The position numbers were made by a program, and so were the translations under genes. The notes under the pieces were generated by a model. The model was not told where the DNA came from. It did no database searches and worked only from the letters and a program-made list of their open reading frames with translations. From Deltaproteobacteria bacterium (GTDB taxonomy: Bacteria > Myxococcota > Myxococcia > Myxococcales > 40CM-4-68-19), in the NCBI GenBank assembly GCA_005879315.1, contig VBLC01000044.1, positions 1,805 to 65,804 on the forward strand: a stretch of 64,000 nt of DNA. Reading direction: 5' to 3'. This document shows positions 28,812-34,213 of this stretch, one piece after another (the stretch's first letter is position 1; each line of letters starts with the position of its first letter).

Positions 28812-30488
28812 ATGCTCCTTCTAGCCCTCTTGCTCGCTTTCCCCGCCGTCTCTCCGCGCGGCGCAGTGGCGGCCGCTCATCCCCTCGCCGCCGAGGCGGG
28901 CGCATCGCTTTTGGGGCGCGGGGGCAACGCCGTCGACGCTGCGGTGGCCGCCGCTTTCGCTCTCGGAGTGGTCGAGCCGCAGAGCTCGGGCATCGGCGGC
29001 GGCGGTTTCGCCCTGGTCTTCACGGCGAAGGACAAGCAGGTGCACGCGCTCGACTTCCGCGAGCTCGCGCCTCTGCGCGCCACGCCCGACATGTACCTGG
29101 AGAAGGGACAGCCGCGACAGGACCTGGCCAACGCCGGGCCGCTCAGTGTGGCGGTTCCGGCGGCGGTGCGCGGCTACGCCGAGCTGGTCAAGCGCTTCGG
29201 AGCGAAGCCGCTCAACCAGGTGGTGAGCCCGGCCGAGCAGATCGCGCTGCGGGGATTTCCCGTCGACCTGCCCTTCGTCCGCGCTTCCGAGGAGAGGAAG
29301 GAGTGCCTGGCGGCGGATCCGGAAGCGGCGCGCACCTTCCTGCGCAACGGGGAGACGCTGGATCCGGGCGATCTGCTCCGCGAGCCGGAGCTGTCGCGCA
29401 CCCTGCATCTCATCGGCCAGCGAGGTCCCGACGCCTTCTACAAGGGCCGCATCGCCCGCAGCATCGTCGAGACCCTGAAGAAGCGCGGCGGCATCCTCGA
29501 GGAGGGCGATTTCGACAAGGTCGCGATGCGCGAGCGCGCGCCGCTCGAGTCGACCTATCGCGGCCATCGCGTCGTCACCATGTCGTTGCCCAGCGCGGGG
29601 GGCGCGCTCCTGCTCGCGCTGCTCAACGTCCTCGAGCGCGAGCAGCCGCGCGCGGGGGGTTATCGGCCCGAGCGATTCCTCCACGTCATGATCGAGGCCG
29701 AGAAGCGCCTCTTCGCACTGCGGCAGTCGATGGGCGATCCCGCCTTCAATTCCGGCCTGGAAGAGCGCGTGCGGCGGATGGTGACCAAGGAATTCGCCGG
29801 CGAGCTCCACCAGGAGATCGGCGAGCGCGCCACGCCGACGGCGACGCTGGTGCAAGCCGCGCAGCACGGCACGACCAGCGTCTCCGCCATCGACGAAGAG
29901 GGAAACGCCGTCGTCCTCAGCACCACCGTCAACGACGCCTTCGGCTCCTGCGTGATGGCGAAAGGAACCGGGGTCCTGCTCAACGACCAGATGGACGACT
30001 TCTCCGTCGCTCCCGGCGTGCCCAACGCCTACGGCCTGCGCGGAGATTTCGAGAATGCGCCTGGGCCGGGCAAGATCCCGCTCTCGTCGATGGCGCCGAC
30101 GCTGCTCTTCGGTCCGGCGGGCGAGCTCGAGCTCGCCATCGGCGCGGCGGGCGGCGCCACCATTCCGACCACGGTCGTGCAGGCCATCAGCCACCTGGTG
30201 GACGACGGCATGCGCATCGATCGCGCCATCGGCGCGCCGCGCATCCACCACAATCTCTTCCCCGACGTGGTCCACGTCGAGCCCGCCGGCCTGGAGGCGG
30301 CCACCGCTCGCGCTCTCGAAGCGCGCGGCCACCAGCTGAAGTTCGGCGGCGAGCCCGGCCACGACGAGGGCCCGGGACTCTTCGGCAGCACCTGGGGCAA
30401 GGCTTGCGCGGTGCAGGTCGATCCGGAGCGCGACTGGCGCATCGCCACCTGCGACCCGCGCAGCCATGGCAGCGGCGCGGTGCCCTAG
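28812..30488 (+). CDS. ggt: gamma-glutamyltransferase
   Basis: 558 aa. AGGNAVDAAVA-type N-terminal region, GIGGGGF, and the autoprocessing/catalytic Thr context QHGTTSVSAIDEEGNAV. Confidence 0.9.
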   Translation: MLLLALLLAFPAVSPRGAVAAAHPLAAEAGASLLGRGGNAVDAAVAAAFALGVVEPQSSGIGGGGFALVFTAKDKQVHALDFRELAPLRATPDMYLEKGQPRQDLANAGPLSVAVPAAVRGYAELVKRFGAKPLNQVVSPAEQIALRGFPVDLPFVRASEERKECLAADPEAARTFLRNGETLDPGDLLREPELSRTLHLIGQRGPDAFYKGRIARSIVETLKKRGGILEEGDFDKVAMRERAPLESTYRGHRVVTMSLPSAGGALLLALLNVLEREQPRAGGYRPERFLHVMIEAEKRLFALRQSMGDPAFNSGLEERVRRMVTKEFAGELHQEIGERATPTATLVQAAQHGTTSVSAIDEEGNAVVLSTTVNDAFGSCVMAKGTGVLLNDQMDDFSVAPGVPNAYGLRGDFENAPGPGKIPLSSMAPTLLFGPAGELELAIGAAGGATIPTTVVQAISHLVDDGMRIDRAIGAPRIHHNLFPDVVHVEPAGLEAATARALEARGHQLKFGGEPGHDEGPGLFGSTWGKACAVQVDPERDWRIATCDPRSHGSGAVP

Positions 30489-30745
30489 GCGCAATGCCTG
30501 TCAGTTAGCCCCTATGCCCTGCCGTGCTCGTGCTCCTGCTCCTTTTGGTGCTCGGTGTTGTTCCCGTTCAGTGCTCGGGGCTTGTTCGCGGGCGATGTAG
30601 ATCGAGAGTGCACCCGAATCAGAACGAGCACGAGCTCGACATCGGGCACGAAAAGGAACACGAGCACAAGCTCGACATCGAGCACGAAGACGAGAACGAG
30701 AACGACCACGGCTAATTGATCGGCATTGGTCTCAGGCGTCCCTGC
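30489..30745. repeat. hexamer-periodic intergenic element, copy B: inverted arms with imperfect 22-bp terminal inverted repeats
   Basis: Read directly. Left arm 30522-30593 has TCGTGC-type hexamers; right arm 30622-30711 has GCACGA-type hexamers. Terminal repeats are 30489-30510 and 30710-30731, matching 17/22. The right arm matches copy A at 77/90. Confidence 0.8.
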
Positions 30746-30753
30746 CTTACAAT
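30726..30753 (+). promoter_or_regulatory. candidate sigma-70-type promoter TTGGTC-N16-TACAAT just upstream of ATG 30763 (near-leaderless)
   Basis: Sequence match only. The -35 lies inside the right terminal repeat of element B. Confidence 0.35.
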
Positions 30754-30762
30754 GGCCTGGCG

Positions 30763-31242
30763 ATGCTCGCACTCCTCCTTGCTGCCACGATACAGGGACC
30801 GGCTGACATCGCCTCGTTGACGCTTGCCTCCGATGCAGTCGTCCGCGCCGAGGTGCTCGGCAAGGAAACCCACTGGGGCGCGGGCGGCGGCGAGATCTTC
30901 ACCACCGTCACGCTGCGCCCGCTCGAAATCTGGAAAGGCGAGCCCGCCGCGCAGTTCTCGCTGCTGGTGCCGGGGGGCAGGCAGGGCGAGCTCGACCAGG
31001 TTGTGCAGGGGGCGGCCCTCTTCCGCGAAGGCGAGGAGGTGGTCGTCTTCCTCGAGCGACGCACGCCCGGCGTCTACCAGGTGGCGCGGATGGCGCTGGG
31101 GAAGTTCACGGTCGGCGCAGTCTCCAGGCGCGCCGTGCGCGATCGCAGCGGCCTTTCCTGCGTCGGCTGCGGCGCGGACGAGGCCGACGCTCTCCCGCTG
31201 GACGAGCTGCGCGCCCGCGTCCTGGGGAGTCTGCGAAAGTGA
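30763..31242 (+). CDS. hypothetical exported protein
   Basis: 159 aa with N-terminal MLALLLAATIQGPA. Its stop overlaps the GTG start of the metzincin gene (GTGA). Confidence 0.55.
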   Translation: MLALLLAATIQGPADIASLTLASDAVVRAEVLGKETHWGAGGGEIFTTVTLRPLEIWKGEPAAQFSLLVPGGRQGELDQVVQGAALFREGEEVVVFLERRTPGVYQVARMALGKFTVGAVSRRAVRDRSGLSCVGCGADEADALPLDELRARVLGSLRK

Positions 31243-33278
31243 AGAGGTTCGCGGCGCTCGCGCTGCTCTTGCCGTGCGCCGCGCTGGCCTGGCAGGGGCA
31301 TCGAGCCGCCGACGGGCAGTTCTTGCGCTGGTCCTTTCCCGACAAGCAGCCGATGGTCGTGCGGCTGGTCGCGCCGCCGCCCTCGCTGCGCCTCAAGGCC
31401 GGCTCGGATCTGCACGCCGCGCTCACCTACGCGGCCGAGGCATGGCAGGCAGTCGAGACCGCGCATGCGCCGGTGCGCGTGCTCGAGCAGGTTGCTCCGC
31501 GCCAGCCGCAGCGAGGCGAAGTGCTGGTGAGCTTCGAGACGGCAGCGGTCTTCCCGCCGGGCCGCGACGCCGCCGGCTTCACCGAGCTCTCCCTCGAAGG
31601 TCACGACATCACCGCCGCGCGCGTGCACCTCAACGCCGCCGACTTCGACTGGTCCACCGACGGGAGCCAGAGCGCGCTCGACGTCCAGACGGTCGCCGCC
31701 GAGCACCTGGGCCACGCGCTCGGCCTCGCCCATCCCTGCGGCGACCTCGACACTGACCTGCCTTCCTGCGCGACGCTGCCGGCCGCGCTGCTGCGAGACT
31801 TGCAGCGCGACGTCATGTTCGCCTCTCTCGCGCCCGGGCCGCGCAGGACGCTGGCGCAGGACGATCGCGACGGCCTGACCGCGCTCCTGCCCGCCGCTGC
31901 GCCTGAGATCGCTCCCGAGCTGCTCGCTCTCTTGCCCCGCTGCCTCGAGTCAGCGACACCGCCGCAGCTCACGCTGCGCGTCGGGCGGACACCGAAGACG
32001 CTGGTGCGGCTCGAGCTCTACAAGTCCGGAATCCTCGTCCAGTCGCAGCCGCTGCAGCGCAACGCCAAGGGCGAGCTCTCCGTCCAGTTCGGGGCTGACC
32101 TCCCCGCGCCGCCAGCGAGGCTCGATGCGCTCCTGGTGGCAGACTCGGAGAAGGCCGGCGCGCTCCTCGGGGCGCTCGAGCTGAGCCTGTCGTGCAAGGC
32201 AGGCGGCTGCGCCAGCGGCGGCGCCTCTCTGCTCGCGCTCGTGCCGCTCCTGCTCTTCGCGCTGCGGCGCAAGCGGACGCTGCTTCTCGCCTTGCTCTTC
32301 GCCGAGCCGGCTCTCGCCTACAAGCGGACCCTCAATTCGGGCGGCCTTTGCATCTGGTGGGACAGCCGCGGACACAGCTTCATGATCGACGCGCGCGGCA
32401 CCCCGGACGTCGTCGGCGACGCGGCCTTCACCGCAATCCGCAGCAGCTTCCAGACCTGGTCGACCACGACTTGCTCGGACCTCTCCTTTCCCGACCAGGG
32501 CCTCTCGATGGATCCGCGCGACCGCGTGGTCGGGTACTTTCCGCGCGTCTGCTCCGGCTGCGGGTGCATCACTCCCGTCAACCGCAACCTCGTCCTCTTC
32601 CGCACCGCGAACTGCCGCCAGCAGGGTGTCGTGCCCTCCGGCGATCCGTGCCTGAGCAAAGGCGGCTGCGGCAACACGTACGACTGCTGGGACCGCGGCG
32701 ACGGCGTCCTCGCCACCACGACGACCACCTCGAACAGCTTCACCGGCCAGATCTACGACAGCGACATCGAGATCAACGACTCGCCGGCGGCCGACGGCAG
32801 CAAGCTCGTCTTCACCGCTCTCGATGGGCCGCCCTGCACCGGGCCCAACCAGACCGGCTGCATCTATTACGACGTGCAGAACACCATCACCCACGAGGCC
32901 GGGCATTCGCTCGGGCTCGACCACAGCCTCGATCCGACCGCGACCATGTACGCCAGCGCGCCGCAGGGCGAGATCAGCAAGCGCACGCTGCACGCCGACG
33001 ACATCCAGGCCATCTGCGACATCTATCCGCGCAGCCTCGACGGCGGCCTGTCGCGCACCGTGACTTGCCTGGGCGATCCGATCACGCTCACCTCAACCGC
33101 CGGATCGAGCGGCGGCTGCGGCTGCTCGCAGGCTCAGGCGGGATCGGGCGCGGCGCTCGCGGCGCTGCTCTTCCTGCTCCAGAGGAAGCGCCGCTCGAAA
33201 AGAAGGCCCCAGCTGGCGATGATCCCGAGCAGCGCTGCCGCCAGCGCGAGCTTGCGGCCGAACGGCAACGTCTCCTGA
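31239..33278 (+). CDS. tandem matrixin-like metzincin; one 679-codon ORF containing two protease-like modules, each ending in a MYXO-CTERM-like tag
   Basis: Module 1 has VAAEHLGHALGLAHP (31701-31733, HE swapped to EH). Module 2 has the canonical HEAGHSLGLDH (32892-32924) plus an ATMYA Met-turn. Tags are GGCASGGASLLALVPLLLFALRRKR (32190-32276) and GGCGCSQAQAGSGAALAALLFLLQRKRR (33102-33206). Confidence 0.7.
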   Translation: MKRFAALALLLPCAALAWQGHRAADGQFLRWSFPDKQPMVVRLVAPPPSLRLKAGSDLHAALTYAAEAWQAVETAHAPVRVLEQVAPRQPQRGEVLVSFETAAVFPPGRDAAGFTELSLEGHDITAARVHLNAADFDWSTDGSQSALDVQTVAAEHLGHALGLAHPCGDLDTDLPSCATLPAALLRDLQRDVMFASLAPGPRRTLAQDDRDGLTALLPAAAPEIAPELLALLPRCLESATPPQLTLRVGRTPKTLVRLELYKSGILVQSQPLQRNAKGELSVQFGADLPAPPARLDALLVADSEKAGALLGALELSLSCKAGGCASGGASLLALVPLLLFALRRKRTLLLALLFAEPALAYKRTLNSGGLCIWWDSRGHSFMIDARGTPDVVGDAAFTAIRSSFQTWSTTTCSDLSFPDQGLSMDPRDRVVGYFPRVCSGCGCITPVNRNLVLFRTANCRQQGVVPSGDPCLSKGGCGNTYDCWDRGDGVLATTTTTSNSFTGQIYDSDIEINDSPAADGSKLVFTALDGPPCTGPNQTGCIYYDVQNTITHEAGHSLGLDHSLDPTATMYASAPQGEISKRTLHADDIQAICDIYPRSLDGGLSRTVTCLGDPITLTSTAGSSGGCGCSQAQAGSGAALAALLFLLQRKRRSKRRPQLAMIPSSAAASASLRPNGNVS

Positions 33279-34213
33279 AACCAGAGAAGCGCGGTCGTGC
33301 CGGCGACGGCGAGCGCGAGCGTCGCCGCCAGCCAGCCAACCTCGCGCCGCGAGAGCTGGACCGCGTGCTTCTCTTGCTGCGCGCGCGTGATCTCTGGCGT
33401 CGGCGGATGGCCCCACTCCGGCCCCTTCAAGAAGACGCGCACCTTGTCGAAGCCTTTGAGCTGCACGCTGCGCCTGCGCATGTCGAAGAAGTGATGCATC
33501 TGTGCCCAGATCGGGTCGAAGCTCTTGAGCGGCTTGACCAGCCCGTAGACGGCCTCTTCCTTCTCCTCTTCGAAGGTGCCGAAGAGGCGGTCCCAGATGC
33601 AGAGGGTGGCAGCGTAGTTCTTGTCGAGATAGCGCGGATTGATCCCGTGATGCACCCGGTGCTGCGAGGGCGTGTTGAAGAGCCTTTCGAAAATTCCCAG
33701 CTTCCCCACCAGCTCGGTATGGATCCAGAATTGATAGAGGGTCGACGCCGATTCGATGATGAGAAACGTGGCGGGCGGCACGCCGATCAGGGCGAGCGGC
33801 AGGTGCAGCGGCCAGAGGGTCCACACCGAGAGCACCGCCTGCCGCAGCGCAACCGCCAGGTTGTAGTCCTCGCTCTGGTGGTGGACGATGTGCACCGCCC
33901 AGAGCGCGTTGACCTCGTGCGAGAGCCGATGCCAGAAGTAGTAGGCGAGGTCGACGGCGAAGAAGGCGATGAGCCAGGGCCAGACCGAGCCGGGCCTGAA
34001 TTCGATCCATCGATGTCTGTAGAGCCAGGTGTATCCGGCGGTGAGGAAGCCGACCTCGAAGACGAGGAAGATCTGCTGCGTCATGCCGCAGGAGAGATCG
34101 GCCACCGCATCGGCAAAGCGATAGAGCTTGAGCCCGCGGCGCCGGGCGAGCCAGAGCTCGACGCCCATCAGCAAGAAGAAGAAGGGAATGGCCAGCGCGA
34201 TCGGATTCGGCAT
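33134..34213 (-). CDS. fatty acid hydroxylase / sterol desaturase superfamily membrane protein
   Basis: His boxes HRLSHE, HIVHHQSEDYN and HRVHHG. Start at ATG 34213 (MPNPIALAIPFFF); the upstream extension in the track is rejected. Confidence 0.85.
   Translation of the reverse strand: MPNPIALAIPFFFLLMGVELWLARRRGLKLYRFADAVADLSCGMTQQIFLVFEVGFLTAGYTWLYRHRWIEFRPGSVWPWLIAFFAVDLAYYFWHRLSHEVNALWAVHIVHHQSEDYNLAVALRQAVLSVWTLWPLHLPLALIGVPPATFLIIESASTLYQFWIHTELVGKLGIFERLFNTPSQHRVHHGINPRYLDKNYAATLCIWDRLFGTFEEEKEEAVYGLVKPLKSFDPIWAQMHHFFDMRRRSVQLKGFDKVRVFLKGPEWGHPPTPEITRAQQEKHAVQLSRREVGWLAATLALAVAGTTALLWFQETLPFGRKLALAAALLGIIASWGLLFERRFLWSRKSSAASAAPDPA

Follow-up and report, generated by a model that had tools for sequence, protein, structure and literature searches.

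Proteins of the MYXO-CTERM system (e.g. TraA) are held in the inner membrane by the helix of a sorting tag and are thought to be lipidated on the invariant cysteine of that tag; the CPBP protease myxosortase (MrtX) cuts the tag in a Cys-dependent manner, after which the tag peptide is set free and type II secretion carries the protein to the cell surface (PMC11980579; bioRxiv 10.1101/2023.06.07.544157). Both the published definition of the tag and all tested substrates place it at the C-terminus (PMC11980579; bioRxiv 10.1101/2023.06.07.544157). In this study, we describe an open reading frame (ORF) at 31239..33278 (+) of a 64-kb stretch of contig VBLC01000044.1 from an uncultured soil myxobacterium (the window, i.e. 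the whole of this stretch), which has a GTG start, 679 codons and no in-frame stop between two matrixin-like metalloprotease modules (half 1 and half 2), and in which a MYXO-CTERM-type tag is present both between the halves (tag 1) and after half 2 (tag 2). On balance, the product of the ORF is probably a secreted polyprotein from which two different matrixin-like metalloproteases would be released, its topology and the two cleavages being predicted from sequence patterns.

The matrixins (i.e. the catalytic domains of human matrix metalloproteinases (MMPs) and of bacterial karilysin) have the MMP fold in common with both halves (target-normalised Foldseek template modelling score (TM-score) of approximately 0.7), together with the zinc helix, the Gly turn, the third His and the Met-turn. 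Unlike the matrixins, the protein described here possesses no pro-domain cysteine switch and would be anchored via C-terminal sorting tags, while half 1 additionally carries a Cys-containing insert of approximately 28 residues between the third His and the Met-turn, an immunoglobulin (Ig)-like domain and, in the window, the order EH where matrixins read HE. Half 2 displays the HExxHxxGxxH motif, Met-turn and terminal-type tag of family NF041905 (myxosortase-dependent metalloprotease, the MXAN_2677/MXAN_2678 family); however, that family describes a free-standing protein of approximately 283 residues with its own start, whereas half 2 forms the C-terminal part of the 679-residue product and has an internal signal peptide. 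Tag 1 exhibits the same tripartite build as the tags of MYXO-CTERM/MrtX substrates (models TIGR03901 and TIGR03382), namely an invariant-Cys motif, a hydrophobic helix and an Arg/Lys cluster, and the N-terminal signal peptide and the Myxococcota lineage are likewise shared; unlike in those substrates, it is internal and is followed by a signal-peptide-like segment (SP2) which shares its basic cluster as n-region.

Cleavage at internal signal peptides is known from the FbcH precursor (cytochrome b/c1) of Bradyrhizobium japonicum and from flavivirus polyproteins. Common to these and to the present ORF are a single frame, an internal hydrophobic signal with a signal-peptidase site and an alternating topology, two mature products of fixed stoichiometry being predicted here; the difference lies in the segment before the internal signal, which in the window would be a removable sorting tag for myxosortase, and in that both products would leave the inner membrane. 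The components (matrixin-like proteases, MYXO-CTERM, myxosortase and signal peptidase) are all known. What appears to be new, as read from the sequence, is a sorting tag placed internally and joined head-to-tail with a signal peptide, by which a single ORF would give rise to two tagged proteins, an arrangement of which we found no earlier description: the literature search returned nothing relevant on MXAN_2677/2678, internal tags or bacterial internal-signal polyproteins, and the MYXO-CTERM papers do not mention fusions.

A conserved fusion of two metalloprotease modules

The ORF is preceded by a Shine-Dalgarno (SD)-like GGGGAG at 31224-31229, 9 nt before GTG 31239, and its GTG overlaps the TGA of an upstream 159-codon ORF (shared GTGA). 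The predicted features of the ORF are as follows, with arrows marking cleavage sites:

31239..33278 (+): predicted polyprotein precursor (half 1, hairpin, half 2), based on the continuous ORF, the SD-like motif and approximately 30 fused homologues
31239..31289 (+): signal peptide 1 (SP1), MKRFAALALLLPCAALA, with ALA↓WQ cleavage pattern, based on sequence, A-x-A↓W being kept in orthologues
31290..31895 (+): catalytic-type domain of half 1, matrixin/MMP fold, based on AlphaFold2, Foldseek and Pfam M10
31701..31733 (+): zinc-helix motif EHLGHALGLAH of half 1, residues 155-165 (HExxHxxGxxH with the first two residues swapped), based on sequence
31815..31817 (+): Met193, candidate Met-turn of half 1 (DVMFAS), an invariant column in 29 sequences
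31911..32192 (+): C-terminal Ig-like beta-sandwich domain of half 1, based on model strands at residues 228-316 and Foldseek
32193..32276 (+): internal MYXO-CTERM-type tag 1, based on the invariant Cys motif and a TIGR03901 score of 16.9 bits
32193-32216, 32217-32264 and 32265-32276 (+): the parts of tag 1 read from sequence, i.e. CKAGGCAS, helix GGASLLALVPLLLFAL and RRKR, respectively
32277..32318 (+): internal signal-peptide-like SP2, TLLLALLFAEPALA, ending at a predicted cleavage site for signal peptidase I (ALA↓YK, between 32318 and 32319), based on sequence pattern
32319..33110 (+): mature protease of half 2, with HEAGHSLGLDH at 32892-32924 and Met-turn ATMYAS at 32940-32957, based on NF041905 and Pfam M10
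33111..33194 (+): MYXO-CTERM-type tag 2, composed of GGCGCS (33111-33128), AALAALLFLL and QRKRR, based on TIGR03901 (15.9-16.4 bits) and alignment to the end of the NF041905 model
33195..33278 (+): tail of 27 codons plus stop after tag 2, inside a convergent gene, predicted to be cytoplasmic and discarded, the same tail being present in L050, L051 and L001

The initial annotation, made from the letters of the window alone, had reported a single stop-less frame of 679 codons with two matrixin-like halves, and this arrangement was found to recur in approximately 30 independent assemblies. The features it listed are all present, although tag 1 does not begin at 32190 but a few codons further on (GGCAS begins at 32202), and the second tag is not the end of the ORF, since 27 codons (33195-33275) follow it. 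Orthologous DNA loci (designated L) were located in genome and metagenome contigs by means of half-1 peptide patterns alone, a search that cannot favour fused genes, and this DNA-level tally was taken as the primary count because database proteins (designated P) carry gene-caller bias. No stop was found near 32277, and a single frame was maintained across the junction, in 11 of the 13 decidable orthologous loci (L030, L031, L032, L033, L035, L042, L040, L041, L002, L003 and L050), or in 12 of 14 when the window is included. The remaining two loci are split: in L034 a stop follows the tag after 16 codons and half 2 lies in another frame, while L001, a metagenome-assembled genome (MAG), has a frameshift inside the tag.

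At the protein level, a full-length query of the JGI, ENA, NCBI and Logan assemblies identified approximately 29 fused full-length homologues of 636-857 aa with identities down to 48%, the overall count being approximately 30 with identities down to 43%, and an exhaustive HMMER search with mature half 1 among 1.84 billion representatives showed every full-length orthologous representative to be fused. Approximately 16 further, distant 50%-identity clusters (about 30-35% identity, 520-650 aa; HMMER) keep the tandem plan: between their two M10-like modules lie, in turn, a Cys motif, a run of hydrophobic residues, a basic cluster, another hydrophobic run and AxA↓(Y/F). A word-indexed query with half 1 had returned a mere three homologues; the full-length query and the DNA pattern scans identified this apparently tiny family as a prefilter effect.

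These findings bear on the possibility that the fusion is a sequencing or assembly error, or a young, neutral stop loss on the way to a pseudogene. Chance stops are rare in high-GC DNA, the L001 frameshift falls at the tag, and in L039 an upstream gene stands in frame with half 1, probably through error or young change; however, the same frame is present in approximately 30 independent assemblies from four sources as well as in relatives of about 30% identity, and the ratio of non-synonymous to synonymous substitution rates (dN/dS) is 0.19-0.46 over half 1, the junction and half 2, by which such an artefact is effectively refuted and must be considered highly improbable. Stop loss, the first of three options in the initial annotation, is probably the historical origin of the gene, albeit an old one that predates divergence to approximately 30% identity. 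The two modules, which had been taken for paralogues, share approximately 20% identity and belong to different subfamilies; they are thus not close paralogues, nor the outcome of a recent tandem duplication. Furthermore, the standalone half-1-like relatives P0038 and P0043 end in an ordinary terminal MYXO-CTERM tag, which suggests that the fused form may have arisen from a terminally tagged protein.

The junction combines a predicted sorting tag and a predicted signal peptide

The signal peptides and the topology were deduced from sequence patterns together with hydropathy. In every orthologue the junction consists of C..GC, a hydrophobic stretch of 14-17 residues, a basic cluster, a loop of 0-55 residues rich in R/K/P/G, a second hydrophobic stretch of 12-16 residues and AxA↓Y/F. 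The position of the basic loop between the two hydrophobic stretches agrees with the positive-inside rule for a cytoplasmic loop, i.e. an out-to-in helix followed by an in-to-out helix. In compact junctions (those of the window, L031, L032, L002 and L041), the same four or five basic residues constitute both the tag anchor and the n-region of SP2 (residues 347-360 in the window). C319, G323 and C324 of tag 1 and A360, at position -1 of the SP2 site, are invariant in the 29 aligned fused homologues, while A358 (-3) and Y361 (+1) reach at least 90% conservation; the Tyr, which is nearly invariant and would form the new N-terminus, is consistent with a defined cleavage point.

Profile hidden Markov models (HMMs) gave a divided answer as to whether tag 1 is a MYXO-CTERM tag, as had been proposed. 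With the window copy, TIGR03901 gave 16.9 bits (against a cut-off of 20) and TIGR03382 gave 13.8 (against 15.85), both beneath threshold, whereas orthologous copies exceeded the thresholds in L040 (21.9 on TIGR03901 and 21.4 on TIGR03382) and L041 (22.1 on TIGR03382). The TIGR03901 score of tag 1 is indistinguishable from that of tag 2 of the same ORF (16.4 bits), which itself belongs to a family that NCBI names myxosortase-dependent.

The mean Kyte-Doolittle hydropathy of the junction helices is 2.6 for the tag 1 core and 1.9 for SP2, values sufficient for the hairpin to remain in the membrane as a permanent double-pass anchor, in which case the ORF would encode a single, uncut, two-headed membrane protein with two periplasmic protease domains. 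Hairpin anchors are common in membrane proteins, and cleavage at the junction is here deduced rather than seen directly. Nevertheless, the invariant residues are precisely those that cleavage needs (the Cys motif of the tag and AxA↓Y), which a plain anchor would not require; the orthologous tag 1 copies match curated sorting-tag models; the standalone relatives P0038 and P0043 carry the tag terminally; half 2 aligns from position 7 of the model of a free-standing family; and the loop accepts inserts of 0-55 residues, including repeat-derived sequence. A double-pass anchor is thus quite unlikely in our estimation, and a junction that is cut on both sides of the hairpin is the reading pursued below.

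The distance from the first Cys to the cleavage site was 123, 126, 129, 165, 177 or 264 nt, all of which are multiples of three. The long linkers represent GC-rich palindromic repeats, with arms such as CACCGCGGAGGCGCGGAG...CTCTGCGCCTCCGCGGTG and predicted hairpins of -90 to -106 kcal/mol, which sit exactly between the basic cluster of the tag and SP2 and are read in frame in most lineages. No such repeat is present in the window; the sites are:

L001:7020-7215: palindromic repeat
L003:5005-5160: palindromic repeat
L033:1290-1495: palindromic repeat
L034:4375-4570: palindromic repeat
L036:4505-4579: palindromic repeat

That the long linkers are ancestral intergenic spacers was ruled out, as they are polymorphic among close relatives (absent from P0012, present in L001) and absent from the deepest branches.

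The same type of linker also joins other partners, namely an M10 protease to a member of the 159-aa family (L007 and L010) and, in P0028, tag 2 to a third module. P0028 (857 aa) is a three-module frame in which tag 2 (RLRRRR) is followed by a linker, MARLAAPTAALFVLLLAAAPGVRA and approximately 150 further residues. L007:3878-5308 and L010:3965-5230, from distant Myxococcota MAGs, encode in frame an M10-like protease, a MYXO-CTERM-like tag, a second signal-peptide-like stretch and a module of the 159-aa type.

Translation of half 2

In-frame ATG, GTG and TTG codons between the Cys motif and the cleavage site were tabulated for the 16 lineages with available DNA, since half 2 might instead be translated mainly from a start inside tag 1 (GTG 32241, CTG/TTG 32262 or similar). 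In that case two functional genes would share one frame, the coding sequence of the tag would double as the n- and h-region of the next signal peptide, and the fusion would be a tolerated by-product because myxosortase removes everything past the tag cysteine. Such a start has some foundation: L030 carries TTG in place of CTG 32262, from which a model signal peptide, M-RRKR-TLLLALLFAEPALA, would result, and a TTG in L040 would give M-RRRR...; split forms exist in L034 (stop) and L001 (frameshift), by which half 2 is apparently expressible alone; the palindromic repeats, usually intergenic elements, lie between the basic cluster and SP2, one of them having GGAGG before an in-frame start; and the fused modules that follow the tag in P0028 and L007 begin with Met.

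However, no internal start was conserved in position or type across the 16 lineages, and no SD-like motif was identified upstream of any candidate except inside an inserted repeat. L041 lacks a candidate altogether, while L032 and L057 have TTG codons solely within the h-region of SP2, where initiation would leave unusable stubs of 9-11 residues. GTG 32241 and CTG 32262, both noted in the initial annotation, are indeed present without an SD-like motif, and GTG 32241 was ruled out as a conserved start of half 2 as it is replaced by GCG in the 98%-identical L030. Chance TTG and GTG codons are to be expected in a Leu/Val-rich helix, all changes in junction length remain in frame and, in the absence of a stop, each ribosome that starts at 31239 would still produce the fusion.

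The fate of half 1 in one relative is also instructive: in P0034 (L051:121-1248) nearly all of half 1 has been lost by an in-frame deletion, while the start, SP1 and part of the tag helix are kept and run into SP2 and half 2. Taken together, the lack of a conserved start, the junction lengths in multiples of three and the in-frame deletion of P0034/L051 indicate that read-through itself is under selection. Overlapping genes, the second option of the initial annotation, thus find an echo in the TTG of L030 and are opposed by the lack of any conserved start or SD-like motif and by the three lineages that have no usable start; we judge translation mainly from an internal start to be unlikely, while occasional internal initiation may, on the evidence of the codons, provide an extra route in some lineages, e.g. 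L030.

Proposed processing of the precursor

Of the three options that had been put forward, a single polyprotein is the best supported, on account of the ancient fusion, the invariant tag cysteines, the conserved AxA↓Y site and the lack of a conserved internal start. According to this model, translation would begin solely at GTG 31239, and SP1 would send half 1, i.e. the MMP-fold and Ig-like domains, across the inner membrane. The helix of tag 1 would then stop transfer, RRKR remaining in the cytoplasm, and SP2 would restart translocation, so that the tag helix, RRKR and SP2 would form an out-in-out helical hairpin. Half 2 would be exported and held by the helix of tag 2. Signal peptidase I would cut after ALA360, creating the conserved new N-terminus YKR, while a myxosortase of the MrtX type would cut just after the modified Cys of tags 1 and 2. 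The expected products are two separately lipid-anchored surface proteases in a fixed 1:1 ratio, with a hairpin peptide of approximately 36 residues and the 27-residue tail being discarded. The processing machinery had been regarded as unknown in the initial annotation; it has now been described as myxosortase MrtX, a CPBP intramembrane protease (PMC11980579; bioRxiv 10.1101/2023.06.07.544157).

Several observations weigh against such a precursor. Tag 1 of the window scores below the cut-off of the curated model (16.9 versus 20 bits), the tag family is C-terminal by definition whereas 333 in-frame codons follow R346, and both junction helices are short (approximately 14-16 residues) with a loop of just four residues, the AlphaFold2 confidence at the junction being low (predicted local distance difference test (pLDDT) of 32-49). 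Sporadic GTG and TTG codons occur within tag 1, including the favourably placed TTG of L030, and L034 and L001 are split. P0035 has lost nearly all of half 1 in frame and kept SP1 but lacks the tag helix, while the junction of P0052 has a single hydrophobic stretch between GCTC and AEA↓YK and no basic cluster, and thus misfits the hairpin. The window and its twin L030 differ at seven positions, of which four are non-synonymous changes in half 1 (with no synonymous ones), three lie in the junction and none in half 2; these counts hint at somewhat relaxed constraint on half 1, although the numbers are too few to interpret. No myxosortase or other tagged protein was detected in the 64-kb window (tblastn with a CPBP query; tag regular expression), which is uninformative as the host genome extends beyond it. 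A suggestive linkage was found in the distant fused relative P0052 (L052:3001-4938; also L053), where a 263-aa CPBP/Rce1-like protease is encoded two genes away (L052:1438-2229, minus strand), its score being below the cut-offs of the curated myxosortase-type families.

A broader proposal is that the tag helix, basic loop and signal peptide constitute a reusable Myxococcota polyprotein linker in which an internal MYXO-CTERM tag works, myxosortase and signal peptidase I releasing at least two lipid-anchored surface proteins; from the sequences at hand we advance this tentatively, at slightly under even chances. LPXTG, PEP-CTERM, GlyGly-CTERM and MYXO-CTERM tags are all defined and searched for as terminal domains. 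Should the proposal hold, it would provide the first demonstration of a sorting-tag system acting at internal sites as well as a bacterial counterpart of the processing of viral polyproteins by host signal peptidase, and bacteria would use topology-encoded polyproteins for the 1:1 delivery of two surface enzymes. If the cleavages occur as predicted, myxosortase would not need a nearby free C-terminus. Annotation pipelines that search protein ends alone would then miss internal tags and give two-protein precursors one name, as in the case of the fused orthologue P0013, which PGAP names simply as a member of NF041905. The fused family would also offer a natural substrate for finding out in which order lipidation and the cleavages by myxosortase and signal peptidase take place.

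Predicted fold of half 1 and its reversed zinc motif

A search with the Pfam Peptidase_M10 model, by which the matrixin assignment of both halves could be assessed, recovered half 2 (46.7 bits against a gathering cut-off of 24, with the zinc motif and Met-turn present) but left half 1 just below the threshold (PF00413; 22.3 bits, E 1.3e-4, covering profile positions 84-124 only). The AlphaFold2 model of half 1, built on an alignment of 31 homologues, has a pLDDT of 90.9 and a predicted TM-score (pTM) of 0.88, and its N-terminal 200 residues superpose on MMP-13, MMP-11, MMP-3 and MMP-2 (Foldseek E of approximately 1e-7, target-normalised TM-score 0.62-0.72, or 0.66-0.72 for MMP-13, MMP-11 and MMP-3). 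Residues of approximately 225-318 form an Ig-like beta sandwich, for which Foldseek matched Ig-like, CopC and IPT domains. The predicted fold of half 1 is therefore clearly MMP-like despite the sub-threshold Pfam score.

In the window, half 1 does not display the canonical HExxHxxGxxH, as its codons read GAG CAC in place of the CAC GAG of relatives; the five remaining motif positions are retained, as is Met193. The order EH was observed only in the window, in its 98-99% identical twin (L030/P0004) and in L050/P0005 (90%, ATEHLGHSLGLAH), while all orthologues outside this sub-clade of at least 90% identity have the canonical HE. The swap reported in the initial annotation is thus real and confined to the sub-clade of the window, rather than shared by all half 1 orthologues. 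The next relatives, at 60-70% identity (P0006-P0010; DNA of L031, L054, L055 and L056), read A[A/T]HELGH with codons CAC GAG. To judge from these codons, EH is a true swap of order that arose once and recently, for which four substitutions or two codon indels are needed. A one-residue register shift from an EHE ancestor (deletion of GAG and insertion of GCC) was also considered, since most clades read xEHELGH; however, because the nearest relatives read A[A/T]HELGH, a literal CACGAG-to-GAGCAC change fits better.

As the window and L050 both carry the swap, their divergence took place after it. Between the two, dN/dS amounted to 0.24 over mature half 1 and to 0.19 over the protease domain of half 1; half 2 gave 0.30 and the upstream gene 0.22. 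Half 1 displayed no rate acceleration relative to L031. Purifying selection and the lack of acceleration indicate that half 1 has been retained, and decay into a pseudogene following the swap was thereby ruled out (post-swap dN/dS of 0.19-0.24).

A standard metzincin site uses its first His as a zinc ligand and its Glu as the general base. In the swapped motif, the position of the first zinc ligand is occupied by Glu and that of the general base by His. By analogy with the standard site, catalysis by the swapped half 1 has quite probably been lost or strongly reduced, although a functional Glu-His-His site is possible. The EH form is a retained variant and probably a pseudoprotease, and half 1 of this sub-clade would be kept for another role, for instance in binding or as a partner or regulator of half 2. 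NF041938 (RSIGE_not_HEIGH), a MYXO-CTERM-anchored inactivated metalloprotease, provides a precedent for the retention of a tag-anchored myxobacterial metzincin relative whose zinc motif is destroyed, and the EHLGH-bearing half 1 of the window may be analogous to it. Unlike in NF041938, the EH swap keeps both residues, is confined to one young sub-clade and is of independent origin; half 1 gave no match to that model, and half 2 scored 100 bits against a cut-off of 375. The EH variant represents a natural experiment on the metzincin zinc helix, in which a swap in the order of ligand and base persists under purifying selection.

Half 2 and its family

Half 2 (residues 347-679) scored 270.3 bits on the NCBIfam model NF041905 (cut-off 250 bits), aligning to positions 7-283 of 283, and the whole ORF scored 278.1 bits. 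This full-length match shows that half 2 corresponds to a complete, normally free-standing protein including its signal peptide and terminal tag.

Neighbouring genes and other observations

The order of genes in orthologous loci is gamma-glutamyltranspeptidase, the 159-aa gene, the protease ORF and a convergent hydroxylase. The genes that flank the protease ORF in the window are:

30763..31242 (+): upstream gene of 159 codons, of no known family, whose N-terminus resembles a signal peptide, syntenic in orthologous loci
33134..34213 (-): convergent gene of the fatty-acid hydroxylase family, likely start Met at 34213, based on Pfam FA_hydroxylase (99.4 bits)

The polyprotein 3' end, i.e. the helix of tag 2 and the tail, overlaps the 3' end of the hydroxylase gene by 145 nt (33134-33278). 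This convergent overlap has the same extent in L050 and L051 and recurs in L001, and the hydroxylase gene calls in orthologous loci are of 355-360 aa. A promoter scan of 30400-33500 identified no internal sigma-70-like site, which is weak evidence for this organism.

The upstream neighbour is conserved at 159-166 aa across orthologous loci, and the 159-aa protein of the window gave no match in Pfam, NCBIfam or PDB sequences. A resemblance to TIMP was supported by no tool and was set aside. The protein does match the module of L007 (BLASTP E 3e-7) and, since members of its family invariably adjoin these proteases, a role as partner or regulator is conceivable. In L039:1505-2822, a short metagenome contig, no stop separates the upstream 159-aa gene from half 1, with which it shares a frame, while the two occupy different frames in the closely related L035. 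The in-frame fusion of L039 may reflect a sequencing error or a young loss of the stop, and its topology would be incoherent.

The 274-nt spacer between the transpeptidase gene and the 159-aa gene (30489-30762) contains a 36-nt imperfect tandem repeat of 2.2 copies (30621-30700). The repeat region at 30607-30717 (+) reads as a small ORF of 36 codons, rich in His, Glu and Asp, that begins with GTG (VHPNQNEHELDIGHEKEHEHKLDIEHEDENENDHG); it is shared by the window and L030 alone, the corresponding spacer of L050 being 12 nt in length.

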